From: Escherichia coli O127:H6 str. E2348/69
GTDB lineage: Bacteria > Pseudomonadota > Gammaproteobacteria > Enterobacterales > Enterobacteriaceae
DNA: 64,000 nt
Assembly: GCF_000026545.1 (NCBI RefSeq)
Contig: NC_011601.1
Direction: 5' to 3' (one strand)
Shown one piece after another: positions 5,863-44,655 of this stretch (within the stretch, counting starts at the first letter, position 1; every line of letters starts with the position of its first letter). Under the pieces are notes generated by a model. It ran no database searches. It was not told where the DNA came from and saw only the letters and a list, made by a program, of their open reading frames with translations. Both the position numbers and the translations under genes were made by a program.

Positions 5863-6888
5863 TTAATCCCAGCTCAGAATAACTTTCCCGGACTGGCCCG
5901 AACGCATAGCGTCAAAGCCCTTCTGGAAATCATCGATAGAGAAACGATGGGTAATGATCGGCGAGAGATCGAGGCCAGACTGAATCAGCGCCGCCATCTT
6001 GTACCAGGTTTCAAACATCTCACGACCGTAAATACCTTTAATGAACAAGCCTTTAAAGATTACTTTGGTCCAGTCGATAGACATATCGGACGGTGGAATA
6101 CCCAGCATCGCAATACGACCACCGTGGTTCATGGTGTCGAGCATGGTACGAAACGCTGGCGGCGCACCGGACATTTCCAGACCGACATCAAAGCCTTCGG
6201 TCATGCCCAGTTCTGTCATCACATCATTAAGGTTTTCTTTAGCGACGTTAACCGCACGGGTGATACCCATTTTGCGTGCCAGCTCAAGGCGGTATTCGTT
6301 AACATCAGTGATCACCACATTGCGTGCACCAACGTGTTTCGCCACCGCCGCAGCCATAATACCTATCGGACCTGCACCAGAGACCAGCACATCCTCGCCA
6401 ACCAGATCGAACGACAGCGCGGTATGCACAGCGTTACCGAAGGGATCAAAAATGGAAGCCAGGTCGTCGGAGATATTGTCCGGGATTTTGAAGGCGTTGA
6501 ACGCCGGAATCACCAGATACTCGGCAAAGCAGCCCGGACGGTTAACACCGACGCCGATCGTGTTGCGGCACAGATGGGTACGACCGCCACGACAGTTGCG
6601 ACAGTGACCGCAGGTGATATGGCCTTCGCCAGAAACGCGATCGCCAATCTTGAAGCCTTTCACTTCCTGACCAATACCTACCACTTCACCGACATATTCA
6701 TGGCCCACGACCATCGGCACCGGGATGGTTTTTTGCGACCACTCATCCCAGTTATAGATGTGAACGTCAGTCCCGCAGATGGCTGTTTTACGGATTTTAA
6801 TCAGCAGATCGTTATGCCCGAGTTCCGGTACAGGAACGTCAGTCATCCAGATGCCCTCTTCCGCTTTCAGTTTGGATAACGCTTTCAT
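5863..6888 (-). CDS. tdh: L-threonine 3-dehydrogenase
   Basis: 341-aa ORF; zinc-dependent alcohol dehydrogenase family motifs ([13 protein letters not shown]); recognised Tdh sequence. Confidence 0.95.
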
Positions 6889-29503: not shown

Positions 29504-30463
29504 TTACCATACCACCAGCATTCGCTTTACACCCTCCCTCGCCTGTTTAAAACCCTCATCCTCAGGATTGATTTGCAATAACCAGTTTATTCTTCCCTGC
29601 AAAGCATAAAGATACGCCGTTGCCTGTGCATGAAGATCGCCAGAAGAATCAAGCTCACCACGACGACTAAGATGCGAAATGACGCCATATTTTTGGCACA
29701 AATGTACTTCCTGACGCAGTGCCCTCCGCACTTCGCGGGCGAGTTGTGGTTTGTGATTAACAACAATCCCGGTTACTTGCTGGCGCTTACAGGCCGCGAC
29801 CAGGCAGCTTTTGCGTTGATTGAGGTTCAGGCCCAGCTCCGCTAACAATCCGCACACTTTATTTTTAACCAGGCGGGCATTGAAGTGACCGGAAAAGGTC
29901 ATGTCATCGCAGTAGCGGGTGTAGGTAATTCCCCGAGCCTGACACCATTCCCCTATGCGCTCATCAAAACGGCACATCACAAGATTGGAAATGGCAGGCG
30001 AAGTTGGTGCCCCCTGCGGTAACGCGTCGTTATAGCAACAAAGCCAGGTCAGCATGCTTACCACATTGCGTGGCAACTGGGCCTGGCGAAACACACGCCA
30101 GACCTGTAACCAGCTAATGCTATCGAAAAAGTTTTCGATATCGAGTTTCAGGATCTGCGGCTGTTGGCAGTGAGGCTGCGCATTGCTGACGATTGGGCAA
30201 CCCGGCCGGTAGGCGGTAGCAAAAGGGGAAAGAGGGAATTGTGAAAGGACGTTCTTAAGAATGTTGCGCTGTACGGTTTTGAGCAAGTAATTAGGGGCTA
30301 ACACCACCCGCTGACCGCCGTGACGCTTAGAAAGAATAATCCGTCGGTAATGGCGTGCGGCATGATTACTGAGCGCATACAGCCGCTGTATTTCTTTATC
30401 GGCGCTCCAGCCCGGCGAGCCGAACAAATCAAGCGCCAGAAGGGTTATCCGGGTAGCATCCAT
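29504..30463 (-). CDS. Retron-type reverse transcriptase
   Basis: 319 aa from ATG (ORF track gives 323 aa from an upstream GTG); RT motifs YCDDMTFSG (YxDD) and QGAPTSPAISNL; retron-typical VTG motif (QVTGIVVN); between slmA and pyrE, where K-12 has only a short intergenic palindrome. Confidence 0.85.
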   Translation of the reverse strand: MDATRITLLALDLFGSPGWSADKEIQRLYALSNHAARHYRRIILSKRHGGQRVVLAPNYLLKTVQRNILKNVLSQFPLSPFATAYRPGCPIVSNAQPHCQQPQILKLDIENFFDSISWLQVWRVFRQAQLPRNVVSMLTWLCCYNDALPQGAPTSPAISNLVMCRFDERIGEWCQARGITYTRYCDDMTFSGHFNARLVKNKVCGLLAELGLNLNQRKSCLVAACKRQQVTGIVVNHKPQLAREVRRALRQEVHLCQKYGVISHLSRRGELDSSGDLHAQATAYLYALQGRINWLLQINPEDEGFKQAREGVKRMLVVW

Positions 30464-32309: not shown

Positions 32310-33173
32310 ATGATCCGCAGTATGACCGCCTACGCCCGGCGTGAAATCAAGGGTGAATGGGGGAGCGCAACCTGGGAAATGCGCTCGGTAAACCAGCGTT
32401 ATCTGGAAACTTACTTTCGTCTGCCGGAGCAGTTCCGTAGCCTTGAACCTGTCGTTCGTGAGCGTATTCGTTCTCGCCTGACGCGCGGTAAAGTGGAATG
32501 TACCCTGCGCTATGAGCCCGATGTCAGCGCGCAAGGTGAGCTGATCCTCAACGAAAAACTGGCTAAACAGCTGGTAACTGCCGCGAACTGGGTAAAAATG
32601 CAGAGTGACGAAGGGGAAATCAACCCGGTTGATATTCTCCGCTGGCCAGGCGTGATGGCGGCCCAGGAACAGGATCTCGACGCGATTGCCGCTGAAATTC
32701 TCGCGGCGCTGGATGGTACGCTGGACGACTTTATCATCGCGCGCGAAACCGAAGGTCAGGCGCTGAAAGCATTGATCGAGCAGCGTCTGGAAGGCGTGAC
32801 CGCCGAAGTGGTCAAAGTCCGCGCCCACATGCCGGAAATCCTGCAATGGCAGCGTGAGCGTCTGGTGGCTAAGCTGGAAGACGCCCAGGTGCAACTGGAA
32901 AACAACCGTCTGGAGCAGGAGTTGGTTCTGCTGGCACAACGAATTGACGTTGCCGAAGAGTTGGACCGCCTCGAAGCGCATGTTAAAGAGACCTACAACA
33001 TTCTGAAGAAAAAAGAAGCCGTTGGTCGTCGTCTGGACTTTATGATGCAGGAGTTCAACCGCGAGTCGAACACCCTGGCCTCGAAGTCTATCAATGCCGA
33101 AGTGACTAACTCCGCCATTGAGCTGAAAGTGTTGATCGAGCAGATGCGCGAGCAGATTCAGAATATTGAATGA
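32310..33173 (+). CDS. yicC: YicC family stress-induced protein
   Basis: 287-aa ORF; synteny with rph. Confidence 0.9.
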   Translation: MIRSMTAYARREIKGEWGSATWEMRSVNQRYLETYFRLPEQFRSLEPVVRERIRSRLTRGKVECTLRYEPDVSAQGELILNEKLAKQLVTAANWVKMQSDEGEINPVDILRWPGVMAAQEQDLDAIAAEILAALDGTLDDFIIARETEGQALKALIEQRLEGVTAEVVKVRAHMPEILQWQRERLVAKLEDAQVQLENNRLEQELVLLAQRIDVAEELDRLEAHVKETYNILKKKEAVGRRLDFMMQEFNRESNTLASKSINAEVTNSAIELKVLIEQMREQIQNIE

Positions 33174-33212
33174 TTTTGCATGCTGTCGCATGAAATTGCA
33201 AAAATCCATCAT

Positions 33213-33237
33213 AGCCCGCATTTTGCGGGCTTTTTTA
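33213..33237 (+). terminator. Intrinsic terminator of yicC
   Basis: Hairpin AGCCCGC-ATTTT-GCGGGCT followed by a T-run, 40 nt past the yicC stop. Confidence 0.65.
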
Positions 33238-33281
33238 TTTTCATACTGTCGCATATGATTGCATAGCATCGCGCAAAACAT

Positions 33282-33300
33282 TTGTACCCAAGACTGTACC
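33282..33300. repeat. attL core (left copy of the 19-bp direct repeat)
   Basis: TTGTACCCAAGACTGTACC, identical to 44406..44424; 61 bp upstream of the integrase start. Confidence 0.75.
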
Positions 33301-33360
33301 TTTAATAATTTATCCAATTCATTTTGGGTACAAAATGATAGTCAATATTCAGGTGAAACT

Positions 33361-34620
33361 ATGGCAAAGCTGACAGATATCCAAATCAAGTCATGGATTA
33401 AGGCAGGAGAACGCTTCGAGGGGCGCTCTGACGGCAACGGGCTATACCTTCGCTATCGAGTGGGGGATAAAGTGCCTGTATGGCGTTTTCGATATCAGTT
33501 CGCTGGGAAATCACGGGTAATGCTTATTGGATCTTATAGCGAAATATCCCTTTCCAAAGCACGGGAAATAGCCAAGGAATTATCCGCACGTGTAGCCCTG
33601 GGCTTCGATGTCGCCGGGGAAAAGAAAGCGCGAAAAGCGGCTGCTATAGAAAAGATGGAGCGGGAGAAAAACGCGCTTCGCGTGTCAGAGCTAGCAACCG
33701 AGTATTTCGAACGGCAGATTTTGGGACGCTGGAAACATCCCGATCTTCTGCGCCGGAGAATCGATAAGGATATCAACCCACATATTGGCAACATGAAGAT
33801 AGAGGACGTAAAACCCCGTCATATTGATGCGATGCTACAGAGCGTTGTTGATCGTGGCGCTCCAACCGTAGCTAATGACGTTCTGCGCTGGACTAAACGC
33901 ATATTCGATTATGCTATCAAGCGTCATGCACTGGAATTAAACCCAGCTGGAGCATTTGATCTGTCAGACGCTGGCGGGCAGGAAAGTAGCCGTATGCGCT
34001 GGCTGACCCGTGAAGAACTTATACGTTTTTTCCAAGCTATGCGCACTGCAAAAGGATTCAGCCGCGAGAACGAGCTGACCATGAAGCTAATCCTCTGCCT
34101 GTGTTGTCGCAAAATGGAGCTGTGCGGTGCTCAGTGGGATGAATTCGACCTTGATGAAGCAGTGTGGCATCTACCAGCAGAACGCGTTAAAAACGGCGAC
34201 GCTATTGATATACCACTACCTCCACCTGCGGTTGGTTGGTTGAGAGAGCTTCGCACTATCGCGGGCAGTGGGAGTAAATGGGTTCTCCCCGCGCGGAAGA
34301 TGCAACACCGCATGATTCCCCACATTCAGGAAAGCACACTCCCAGTGGCGCTGGCAAAAGTACGCCGCGAAATGCCAGAAGTACCAAACTTCACAATTCA
34401 CGATTTCAGGCGTACCGCCCGCACCCATTTAGCGGCGTTGGGTGTCGATCCCGTAGTCGCAGAACGTTGCCTGAATCACCGCATTAAAGGCGTTGAGGGT
34501 ATCTACAACCGCCACCAGTACTTTGAAGAACGACGGGCAGCCCTGGAACTGTGGGCGGGGCTTCTGGTTTCGCTTGAACGAGGGGAAAACTACAATGTTA
34601 TTCCTTTATCTAAAATATAA
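33361..34620 (+). CDS. int: Tyrosine-type site-specific integrase (P4-like)
   Basis: ORF 33259..34620 trimmed to MAKLTDIQIKSW (419 aa); catalytic region HDFRRTARTHL and C-terminal Tyr region (GIYNRHQY). Confidence 0.9.
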   Translation: MAKLTDIQIKSWIKAGERFEGRSDGNGLYLRYRVGDKVPVWRFRYQFAGKSRVMLIGSYSEISLSKAREIAKELSARVALGFDVAGEKKARKAAAIEKMEREKNALRVSELATEYFERQILGRWKHPDLLRRRIDKDINPHIGNMKIEDVKPRHIDAMLQSVVDRGAPTVANDVLRWTKRIFDYAIKRHALELNPAGAFDLSDAGGQESSRMRWLTREELIRFFQAMRTAKGFSRENELTMKLILCLCCRKMELCGAQWDEFDLDEAVWHLPAERVKNGDAIDIPLPPPAVGWLRELRTIAGSGSKWVLPARKMQHRMIPHIQESTLPVALAKVRREMPEVPNFTIHDFRRTARTHLAALGVDPVVAERCLNHRIKGVEGIYNRHQYFEERRAALELWAGLLVSLERGENYNVIPLSKI

Positions 34621-39890: not shown

Positions 39891-39992
39891 CTGAGTTTTC
39901 ATAACTCCGATGAGTTTTCAATAACTCCCCCACCCGTAACCACCTACCCCGTAGCCTTGCGATTACCTTCTCACTCAATAGCAGGTAATCGC

Positions 39993-40205
39993 ATGAAATC
40001 GCAAACTTTCACCTTTCCTACCAATGGCAACGCACGAGCCAAACAAGTGGCGCACTATCTTGGAGTGCATATCAGCACCGTATGGCGCTATGCAAAACGT
40101 CCTGATTTTCCAAAACCCCACCAGTTAACCGACGGCGTGACCGTCTTTGACGCCGCAGCTATTCGCCAATGGAACAAGCAAAAAACCGGGGGTGAGAATG
40201 CTTAA
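39993..40205 (+). CDS. alpA: AlpA-family phage transcriptional regulator / excisionase-like protein
   Basis: ORF 39957..40205 trimmed to MKSQTFTF (70 aa); HTH segment AKQVAHYLGVHISTVWRYAKRPDFPKP typical of AlpA/Vis. Confidence 0.7.
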   Translation: MKSQTFTFPTNGNARAKQVAHYLGVHISTVWRYAKRPDFPKPHQLTDGVTVFDAAAIRQWNKQKTGGENA

Positions 40206-44150: not shown

Positions 44151-44255
44151 AGGGTGAACAGGTGCGCATACCTTAACAAAGCTGTTCACTCTAATAATTT
44201 TCTTTAATATCAGTACACTACCCGCAATAAGTGAACAGATGGACGGGGTGAACAC
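44151..44255. repeat. Cluster of GTGAACA motifs near the right island end
   Basis: GGTGAACA at 44153 and 44248, GTGAACAG at 44231, inverted copy TGTTCAC at 44183; related to the left-end TGTTCACC/TATTCACC cluster. Confidence 0.45.
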
Positions 44256-44405
44256 TTCACACCTATAGCGCGAAATATTTTAATATTTGCAGTTGAATTG
44301 CAATCCTTGAAAACAGAAACGCGTAGCAAAACGTAGAGTGCTGAAAAAATTTTGTTGGGGAGCAGTTCAAACTGCATGAGCAATTTTCAAGCACTCCTCT
44401 TTGTC

Positions 44406-44424: not shown

Positions 44425-44655
44425 CAATAGAAAAAATAGAAAATAAAAACTCAGCAATAGCAGCGATTGGTTACACTACTCAACATTCAGATTCAACTCG
44501 TAACGCCAATTCTTACTTTTCAGCCTTCACAAATGCCGCCCACTCAAACAGAGCGGCATTTTTCTTCCCCGCAACTTCAATTCTGTTTTGCGTGCCTGCT
44601 CCAGATTTTGCGATGTTTTTTTGCCCAGCGCAGTGAGAACGTGAGATACTCACAA

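Follow-up and report, generated by a model that had tools for sequence, protein, structure and literature searches.

Phased repeat units in the attL arm of a yicC-integrated P4-like island of Escherichia coli as candidate binding arrays for an AlpA-type excision factor

Introduction

Between yicC and an integrase gene of Escherichia coli O127:H6 E2348/69, two imperfect 20-mers lie on either side of a hairpin, which raises the question of what they are for. They were noticed in a 64,000-nucleotide stretch of DNA (here called the window, and a 100% match to E2348/69) in a sequence-only reading, where they were taken either for ancestral regulatory repeats of the yicC–dinD spacer or for sites used in the integration of a genomic island. 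We found that the 20-mers are parts of an array of seven short phased units in the left attachment site (attL) of a P4-like satellite, and we consider it probable, at roughly 60%, that these units are binding arrays for the AlpA-type excision factor of the island, bracketing a terminator that the island itself supplies. As judged by sequence comparison, units and hairpin are borne by the island, their layout is fixed throughout the clade, and the units are distinct from the GTGTAC arm sites of the integrase (Int). This is a known kind of system, namely an accessory-protein array in a P4-type attachment arm, in an instance that had not been characterized before; no new kind is revealed.

Results

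Two blocks of phased units

The two 20-mers, TGCTGTCGCATGAAATTGCA at 33181–33200 and TACTGTCGCATATGATTGCA at 33244–33263, are identical at 16 of 20 positions (mismatches at positions 2, 12, 13 and 14), rather than at 17 as first counted, and the match extends to 21 of 26 when 33175–33200 is aligned with 33238–33263. Among 1000 dinucleotide shuffles of the 187-nt yicC–int spacer, 16/20 was reached in 11 and 21/26 in none; the repeat is real, and chance would hardly account for it. Shorter units recur nearby, as had also been noticed, in the form of TGnnnTTGCA-like sequences (TGATTTTGCA at 33171–33180, TGAAATTGCA at 33191–33200 and TGATTGCA at 33256–33263). Taken together, the 20-mers account for four units out of a set of seven; each of these short units is a 10-mer with a YGCA end, and the units follow each other at one helical turn and fall into two blocks (Table 1). 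GCA ends are found at 33180, 33190, 33200, 33253, 33263 and 33275, with the two blocks 53 bp apart, or about five helical turns.

Searching the whole window for TYGCA-N5-6-TYGCA gave 5 matches compared to 0.9 expected, all on the plus strand and all within the island: three in the attL arm, one in the arm of the right attachment site (attR, 44287) and one at 39989, on the ATG of alpA. With regards to the two arms, the int-proximal one carries seven units and the other a single pair, ~200 bp from the core.

Location of the units within the island

The island covers ~11.3 kb, from the yicC stop codon (33173) to 44496. Its gene content, as read from annotation together with Pfam hits for Int, AlpA and the D5_N/Pox_D5/DUF5906 primase, includes an integrase, an Icd-like gene, a 70-residue Phage_AlpA protein and a D5/P4-type primase. 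Having a size within ~10–15 kb, int, alpA and primase/replicase genes, a dedicated att and no virion genes, it classifies by sequence as one element of the P4 or phage-inducible chromosomal island (PICI) type of satellite. Integration of PICIs in yicC had already been mentioned in passing (preprint 10.1101/2022.07.18.500453).

Using 32950–33450 as query, we found matches in 5,424 E. coli genomes, ending at the yicC stop in all but 17; in the 5,407 island-free genomes homology stops at that codon. The 127 bp after the stop (33174–33300; blastn with 11-base words) matched only in 17 of 5,426 E. coli genomes, all of them island carriers, and the 121 bp before 44500 were found solely in the same 17. 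These carriers belong to very different lineages, including O127:H6, O55:H7 and O45:H2. In K-12, the yicC stop is directly joined to CTCGTAACGCC..., the sequence that in the window starts at 44497. The comparison with island-free genomes was the test that the sequence-only reading had itself proposed, and its first option did not survive it: repeats native to the yicC–dinD spacer, an idea for which no point spoke beyond their adjacency to yicC, would not be missing from K-12 and all other island-free E. coli genomes searched, nor occur only together with the island, and we give this explanation next to no credence. No empty site retaining the 127-bp or 121-bp flank without the island was seen among the E. 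coli genomes searched, and a nested remnant or landing pad, a model prompted by a 19-bp repeat deep inside the insert, was discarded for lack of such a site.

To map the junction, yicC from four island carriers was compared with K-12. Nucleotides 855, 858 and 863 of the gene (window 33164, 33167 and 33172; CAGAAtATtGAATgA) had the island-type base in four unrelated host backgrounds, and yicC of strain A34 was otherwise K-12-like from position 454 to the gene end. Co-transfer of a divergent yicC 3' end with its flank by homologous recombination was rejected, since only these three positions were island-linked in the four backgrounds. The right junction of O45:H2 (FWSEC0003) was intact, reading ...CATTCAGATTCAGAACATTGAATAA|CTCGTAACG. 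Because of the island-type bases at 855, 858 and 863 and this intact attR, we place attB at the end of yicC, with the island supplying the last codons and the stop; by this sequence evidence, the island entered the last codons of yicC through site-specific recombination. An identity block shared by attL, attR and attB, CAGATTCAGAA (33153–33163), lies within these codons, and we infer that crossover, including its precise cleavage positions, falls within it. As the crossover lies within yicC, repeats and hairpin are placed inside the island, in the int-side arm of attL, and not just outside attL as first described. The 20-mers are not themselves an att core, as they occur neither at attR nor in attB.

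Within the core, ATTCA (33156–33160) and TGAAT (33167–33171) form an inverted pair around GAATAT, and from its sequence this dyad may plausibly represent Int sites of the core type. Since the presumed overlap region includes position 33164, with its island-type T, attP and attB would differ there by one base.

The attR core of E2348/69 is damaged, which probably locks the island of this strain in place. Deletions at the right junction share one starting base, immediately after the core ATTCA, and differ in length: 2 bp in DEC5B, 12 bp in E2348/69 and A34, ~31 bp, reaching into the spacer, in C311, and none in O45:H2. They are located at window 44485–44496, in the 27283 region of locus L003 and upstream of dinD in L014 (C311), and they resemble the 'damage' of displaced target-gene fragments reported for PICIs by Tommasini et al.

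A predicted terminator supplied by the island

The 20-mers had been described as flanking the yicC terminator. They do flank a hairpin with a T-run, but that hairpin is not the native one and lies in inserted DNA. Starting 40 nt past the yicC stop, it has an 8-bp stem with 6 G-C pairs and a 3-nt loop, followed by TTTTTTATTTT; as a G+C-rich stem-loop that precedes a T-run and follows a gene read from the same strand, it is a predicted intrinsic terminator. Upon RNA folding of 33165–33280 the hairpin was the sole stable element, with no structure beyond it (z = -1.2), and an Rfam scan gave no family at gathering score, the best being Trp_leader at 26 bits versus 41, with all hits centred on the terminator. 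Hairpins with a T-run occupy the equivalent place in nearly all related islands and are not found in island-free genomes. The native yicC terminator has been pushed 11.3 kb from its gene by the island.

Conservation of the layout among related islands

An integrase gene 66–73% identical at the DNA level was found in 527 further E. coli genomes, and seven of seven sampled carriers had it at yicC; about 10% of complete E. coli genomes have a member of the family at this site. Scanning one genome per species, we obtained 79 loci from Enterobacterales, Aeromonas, Chromobacterium/Vogesella, Rhodocyclales and Methylococcales. The integrases at these loci are 46–85% identical and come from ~70 other species of gamma- and beta-proteobacteria; in 68 of the 79 loci int lies downstream of a yicC homolog, at a distance of 165–245 bp in 65 of them.

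These loci share a common order, with the last yicC codons followed by three units, an A-run, hairpin and T-run, four units, a doubled (G)TGTACnnnn, an inverted copy thereof, and int. CA ends at +7, +17 and +27 after the yicC stop were present in 76%, 77% and 85% of 62 distinct loci, with a background of ~5%, and those at -39, -29, -19 and -9 before the arm motif in 71%, 92%, 92% and 86% of 59 distinct loci, while the distance from stop to arm motif was 112 +/- 3.7 bp. The left and right blocks resembled each other beyond 95% of shuffles in 46/62 loci, even though the unit sequence varies by lineage. The window and Erwinia endophytica (locus L017) have YGCA units, loci L006, L016 and L018 have ACTCC, many Enterobacterales have GCTATCA..GACGCA, and others have GTCTCA, TTTCA or CCC. 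The left block of L017 is unlike that of the window except for its phased YGCA ends, a retention that reads, from the alignment, as a phylogenetic footprint. An array thus conserved in the int-proximal attL arm of ~70 related islands lends support to the other original suggestion, that the repeats are sites used in island integration.

Two contigs among the loci, L025 ('Chryseobacterium sp. 18061') and L037 ('MAG: Flavobacterium psychrophilum'), carry a YicC 92–100% identical to that of E. coli together with an enterobacterial-type island, which probably reflects contamination or mis-binning in those assemblies.

Covariation of the doubled arm sites with Int

The window also carries a 19-bp direct repeat, TTGTACCCAAGACTGTACC, at 33282 and 44406, ~110 and ~80 bp inward of the two junctions, which is probably what the sequence-only reading had taken for att. 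By its sequence and placement it is instead a doubled arm-type site, which Int would bind, and not a crossover site. Equivalent attR-side pairs were found in CFS3246 and C311, each of the flavour of its own lineage. When the flavour of the GTGTAC motif was compared with a 12-residue stretch of the Int arm domain, 56 of 56 loci fell on the diagonal and none off it: LR(Y/F/H)RxxDxxPxW was paired with GTGTACCCAA-like sites (24 loci), xC(F/Y)PxxYxxPFW with GTGTAC(A/T)TA (14 loci) and x(S/C)YRxxYxxP(V/I)W with GTGTACACCT-like sites (18 loci). The stretch corresponds to Int residues ~28–41, with variants such as LRYRVGDKVPVW and LCFPEKYNAPFW and arm flavours such as GTGTACCCAA and GTGTACATAC. The Int of L009 is 91% identical to that of L008, yet has another arm-domain stretch and another GTGTAC flavour; despite this difference, L009 keeps the phased units of L008 and a similar AlpA. 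Upon matrix regression over 39 loci, the Int segment accounted best for similarity of the arm motif (beta 0.32, p = 0.001). Compared with a phage collection, the window Int gave nothing above 33% identity.

In L066, L069 and L070 (Dechloromonas, Propionivibrio), at ~5950–6390 in coordinates of the loci themselves, a second arm-domain-like sequence (MEKLTDELIAEWIE...GGGLYLGF...) was seen between the arm sites and the int start as placed by tblastn, ahead of the full-length integrase match.

Relation of the phased units to AlpA

The units behaved differently from the arm sites in these comparisons, with a flavour that grouped with AlpA clusters and not with Int class: YGCA in the window and L017, ACTCC in L006, L016 and L018, and TATCA..GACGCA in cluster 5 whatever the Int class. 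Distinct flavours correspond to AlpA clusters 8 and 6, while several other clusters share TCA and shared ancestry confounds the grouping. In the regression, unit similarity was predicted best by AlpA identity (beta 0.45, p = 0.001), with the Int segment weaker (beta 0.25, p = 0.004) and the catalytic part of Int at 0. Both covariation and regression are confounded by common descent, the loci not being independent, and we take them as supportive and not as decisive.

A homolog of AlpA (hmmsearch score >40) was found in 46 of 77 island loci scanned, and the window protein weakly matches PDB 8c3t, an 'AlpA family phage regulatory protein'. A further double unit lies over the alpA start codon, and its score was the highest from int start +100 to +12.5 kb on both strands (empirical p = 0.001). 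When each locus was scanned with the unit matrix of its own lineage, a double unit within 75 nt around the alpA start fell in the top 5% of same-locus windows in 16 of 39 lineages.

The array combines, as found here, direct repeats about one helical turn apart with a 10-bp CA phasing across the clade, a location in one att arm between core and arm-type sites, and a gene within the element for a small winged-helix recombination directionality factor (RDF; Phage_AlpA). RDF sites are described as direct repeats one helix turn apart (PMC7498355). RdfS binds attP as well as its own promoter (PMC11963761), TorI and Vis are RDFs that bind an att arm and their own gene (PMC2951348), and AlpA is needed for excision of both CP4So (PMC5148205) and EcCICFT073 (PMC6092414).

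Could the units instead be a second class of Int sites, bound by its arm domain or its core-binding domain, with AlpA uninvolved? They do belong to an att arm, where they keep a fixed register to core and arm sites, identity of the Int N-terminal segment predicts their similarity as given above, and Tommasini et al. left the choice between Int and AlpA open for the doubled motif of helper-embedded PICIs (HE-PICIs; PMC10111431). The Int arm domain, however, already has a perfectly covarying partner in GTGTAC, and unit flavour does not follow the class of its N-segment, unlike what holds for arm-type sites: a single class (CxP) is paired with ACTCC, TATCA or GTCTCA units, and L008 and L009 share units while differing in segment and arm-site flavour. 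Binding by Int only would also leave the unit copy on the alpA start codon unexplained, and we regard this alternative as unlikely.

It is also improbable, in our view, that the units bind no island protein at all and merely aid looping of the arm, either as bendable, phased CA/TG steps or as sites for host IHF, Fis or HU. The most conserved feature is indeed only a CA every 10 bp, nearly all lineages have the last unit (AAAGCGCAT) although their AlpA proteins are very different, and for both P4 and PAI I536 the region regulating int has been reported to contain IHF sites (PMC7286903). Yet the blocks within a lineage share matches of 13–17 nt that extend well past CA (15/17 in the window and 16/17 in L008), the flavour is replaced entirely from one lineage to another within one host species, E. 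coli, and the IHF consensus WATCAANNNNTTR fits nothing in the units as judged by eye.

Upstream of alpA, where further YGCA units had been expected, we instead saw GAGTTTTCA(A)TAACTCC twice at ~39891–39930, ~65–100 nt ahead of the gene. A similar GAGTTTTCTAATAATTCC precedes alpA in CFS3246 (L008), though its AlpA is only 33% identical. This tandem could serve as an operator at which a factor from a helper phage or from the host turns on alpA. Directly ahead of the alpA ATG, at ~39960–39992, lies an inverted repeat, GCGATTACC ... GGTAATCGC, that could mask the ribosome-binding region once transcribed into mRNA.

Table 1. Features of the yicC island of E2348/69 and its junctions, in window coordinates
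Feature	Position	Strand	Basis or remark
yicC (YicC/YloC endoribonuclease)	32310..33173	+	Open reading frame, annotation; last ~10–20 nt and TGA stop assigned to the island
att core at attL, CAGATTCAGAATATTGAATGA	33153..33173		attL versus attB (K-12) versus intact attR of O45:H2 FWSEC0003
Left block, three phased units (TTTTGCA, TGCTGTCGCA, TGAAATTGCA)	33174..33200	+	Contains the first 20-mer
Predicted island-borne intrinsic terminator, AGCCCGCA-TTT-TGCGGGCT then T-run	33213..33241	+	Stem 33213–33231
Right block, four phased units (TTTATTTTCA, TACTGTCGCA, TATGATTGCA, TAGCATCGCGCA)	33234..33275	+	Contains the second 20-mer
Doubled arm-type site, TTGTACCCAA GA CTGTACCTTT, 12-bp period	33282..33303	+	Left copy of the 19-bp direct repeat
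Inverted arm-type copy, TTGGGTACAAA	33324..33334	-	11/11 complementary; 26 nt ahead of int ATG; kept in relatives
Tyrosine integrase with arm DNA-binding domain	33361..34620	+	Pfam Arm-DNA-bind_3, Phage_int_M, Phage_integrase; annotation
Extra double unit over the alpA start codon, ATCGCATGAAATCGCA	39988..40003	+	14/16 versus left-block GTCGCATGAAATTGCA
alpA-like gene, 70 aa, candidate unit binder	39993..40205	+	Pfam Phage_AlpA, 29.9 bits versus cut-off 21
Further phased pair in the attR-side arm, TTGCAGTTGAATTGCA	44287..44302	+	One of five TYGCA-N5-6-TYGCA matches in 64 kb
Doubled arm-type site in the attR-side arm, TTGTACCCAAGACTGTACCCAA	44406..44427	+	~80 bp left of core
Damaged attR core, ATTCAGATTCAA	44485..44496		Lacks 12 bp (GAACATTGAATA) relative to intact O45:H2 attR
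Native yicC terminator (ATGCCGC...GCGGCAT then T-run)	44533..44564	+	Same sequence directly follows yicC in K-12

Discussion

If the units are docking sites for AlpA, as we favour, the small winged-helix AlpA of the island would act as its RDF by binding the seven units cooperatively. Placed along one face of the helix, it would bend the arm and thereby bring the core within reach of Int bound at the GTGTAC sites during excision, and its binding would probably also damp the expression of int and alpA. The hairpin would replace the displaced native terminator of yicC, and could thereby shield int and the complex on attL from read-through out of yicC.

Several points weigh against this assignment. 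Many AlpA clusters share a unit ending in TCA, with the specificity signal coming mainly from YGCA, ACTCC and CCC; the Int N-segment is also a significant, although weaker, predictor of unit similarity; and all predictors are confounded by shared ancestry. No AlpA hit was obtained in several islands having clear unit arrays (e.g. L010, L026, L036 and L037), some of which may be accounted for by short contigs and by the calling of open reading frames from Met only. The alpA-proximal copy was seen in just the 16 of 39 lineages, using a matrix of low information against a mostly coding background. With regards to the damping of int, AlpA of EcCICFT073 left the activity of Pint unchanged (PMC6092414).

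The location of the blocks around a terminator raises the further alternative that they form a transcription switch, with a protein on both sides of the hairpin controlling read-through from yicC to int, by anti-termination or as a roadblock, and not the geometry of recombination. The blocks bracket an intrinsic terminator in every lineage, int of ICEKp1 is driven from the promoter of a host gene through attenuating stem-loops (PMC13023037), and AlpA of Pseudomonas aeruginosa is a processive antiterminator (PMC7969949, PMC9371919). The latter protein is, however, much larger, with eight helices, and loads at a promoter-proximal sigma-dependent pause via a single 6-bp element (PMC9371919), whereas the AlpA of the window, at 70 residues, is essentially a DNA-binding fold alone. 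A sigma-70 promoter scan of 32900–33700 gave no match, leaving the left block without an adjoining promoter, and the 10-bp phasing with its fixed register to core and arm sites indicates an assembly at the level of DNA. As a full explanation we therefore hold a transcription switch to be very unlikely; as a role of the terminator region added to that in excision, it is possible.

A more far-reaching version of the AlpA model can also be formulated, in which the AlpA array wraps around the terminator and the arm is written in two codes that can be exchanged independently of each other, one pairing the Int segment with GTGTACnnnn and the other pairing AlpA with the 10-mers, while a single filament accomplishes excision, gating of read-through and shut-off of alpA. 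We find it doubtful that all of this holds. If true, the two codes would extend over the clade of yicC-targeting integrases and apparently to P4 itself, and the single AlpA filament would be a state-dependent switch of a type undescribed for satellites.

With or without that extension, binding of the units by AlpA would agree with the organization of several known systems. The attL of the prophage KplE1 (CPS-53) is bound cooperatively by TorI at five sites, arranged as two blocks that separate the core from P' arm sites overlapping PintS (Panis et al. 2010, PMC2951348; PMC3509656). Like the window, it has a host-gene 3' end with core, RDF sites in two blocks, arm sites over the int promoter region and then int, which reads away from the junction; the conserved part of its RDF site is also short, and its integrase has an arm-binding domain as well. 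It differs in that its target is the argW tRNA and not a protein gene, its sites number five (2+3) compared to seven (3+4), no terminator hairpin has been described between the blocks, and TorI binding was determined experimentally, whereas binding of AlpA in the window is proposed from sequence.

P4 offers a second parallel. Like the window, its record NC_001609 (Pierson and Kahn 1987) lists an 'attP arm sequence repeat', a doubled 12-bp pair on each arm, with an inverted copy over the int start. We found TCC units in its attP at 32, 42, 52 and 60 and at 95, 105, 115 and 125 after the core region, that is, two blocks of four units with 10-bp phasing, likewise between the core and the int-side pair. 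Vis, the AlpA-family excisionase of P4, reportedly binds in this part of attP. P4 also has an alpha-type primase and a similar element size. In contrast to the window, it targets leuX, its unit is TCC and not YGCA, the spacer between its blocks has only a weak hairpin, and its Int is not among the phage-collection matches listed for the window Int, all of which have at most 33% identity.

The HE-PICIs, which resemble the window island in having Int, AlpA and primase, carry a doubled attP motif, tgTGTATTGCantgTGTATTGCa, with a 12-bp period, ~81 bp upstream and ~132 bp downstream of the attP centre (PMC10111431). These positions agree with those of the GTGTAC pairs in the window (~80 bp on one side; on the other ~112 bp from the stop, equal to ~125–130 bp from the core centre), so that the motif corresponds to the GTGTAC arm sites and not to the 20-mers. 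Tommasini, Mageeney and Williams (2023) called the motif unique to HE-PICIs and left its binder open; unlike what we see in the window, their paper describes no phased units between core and motif (PMC10111431). In ICEKp1, an integrative and conjugative element, Liu et al. (2026) found a displaced host terminator and attenuating stem-loops ahead of int (PMC13023037). There too an island displaces the terminator of a host gene and a stem-loop or terminator lies between that gene and int; that element, however, sits at tRNA-Asn, its stem-loops attenuate a functional int transcript driven from the host promoter, and no phased arrays have been described in it.

For the window, the boundaries are corrected by these results, with the junction inside yicC, the 'yicC terminator' made by the island and the 19-bp repeat being a pair of arm sites rather than att. 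More widely, comparison across the clade gives a testable assignment of binders within the attachment site of a widespread satellite family, since the doubled arm motif, to which no binder had been assigned in HE-PICIs, follows a short segment of the Int arm domain in perfect covariation, while the units point to AlpA. Arm-site specificity and control of excision in PICI- and P4-type elements thereby become testable by swaps of sites and domains.

Additional observations

Outside the island, E2348/69 has a gene for a 'reverse transcriptase family protein' at 29504–30463 on the minus strand, between slmA and pyrE. It is missing from this place in K-12, DEC5B and O45:H2, and it may belong to a retron or another small insertion. 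Within the island, four copies of GTGAACA(G/C) are found at 44154, 44182 (inverted), 44231 and 44248, just past the primase gene and its terminator (44154–44255); these copies are iteron-like and may mark a replication origin or a packaging site.

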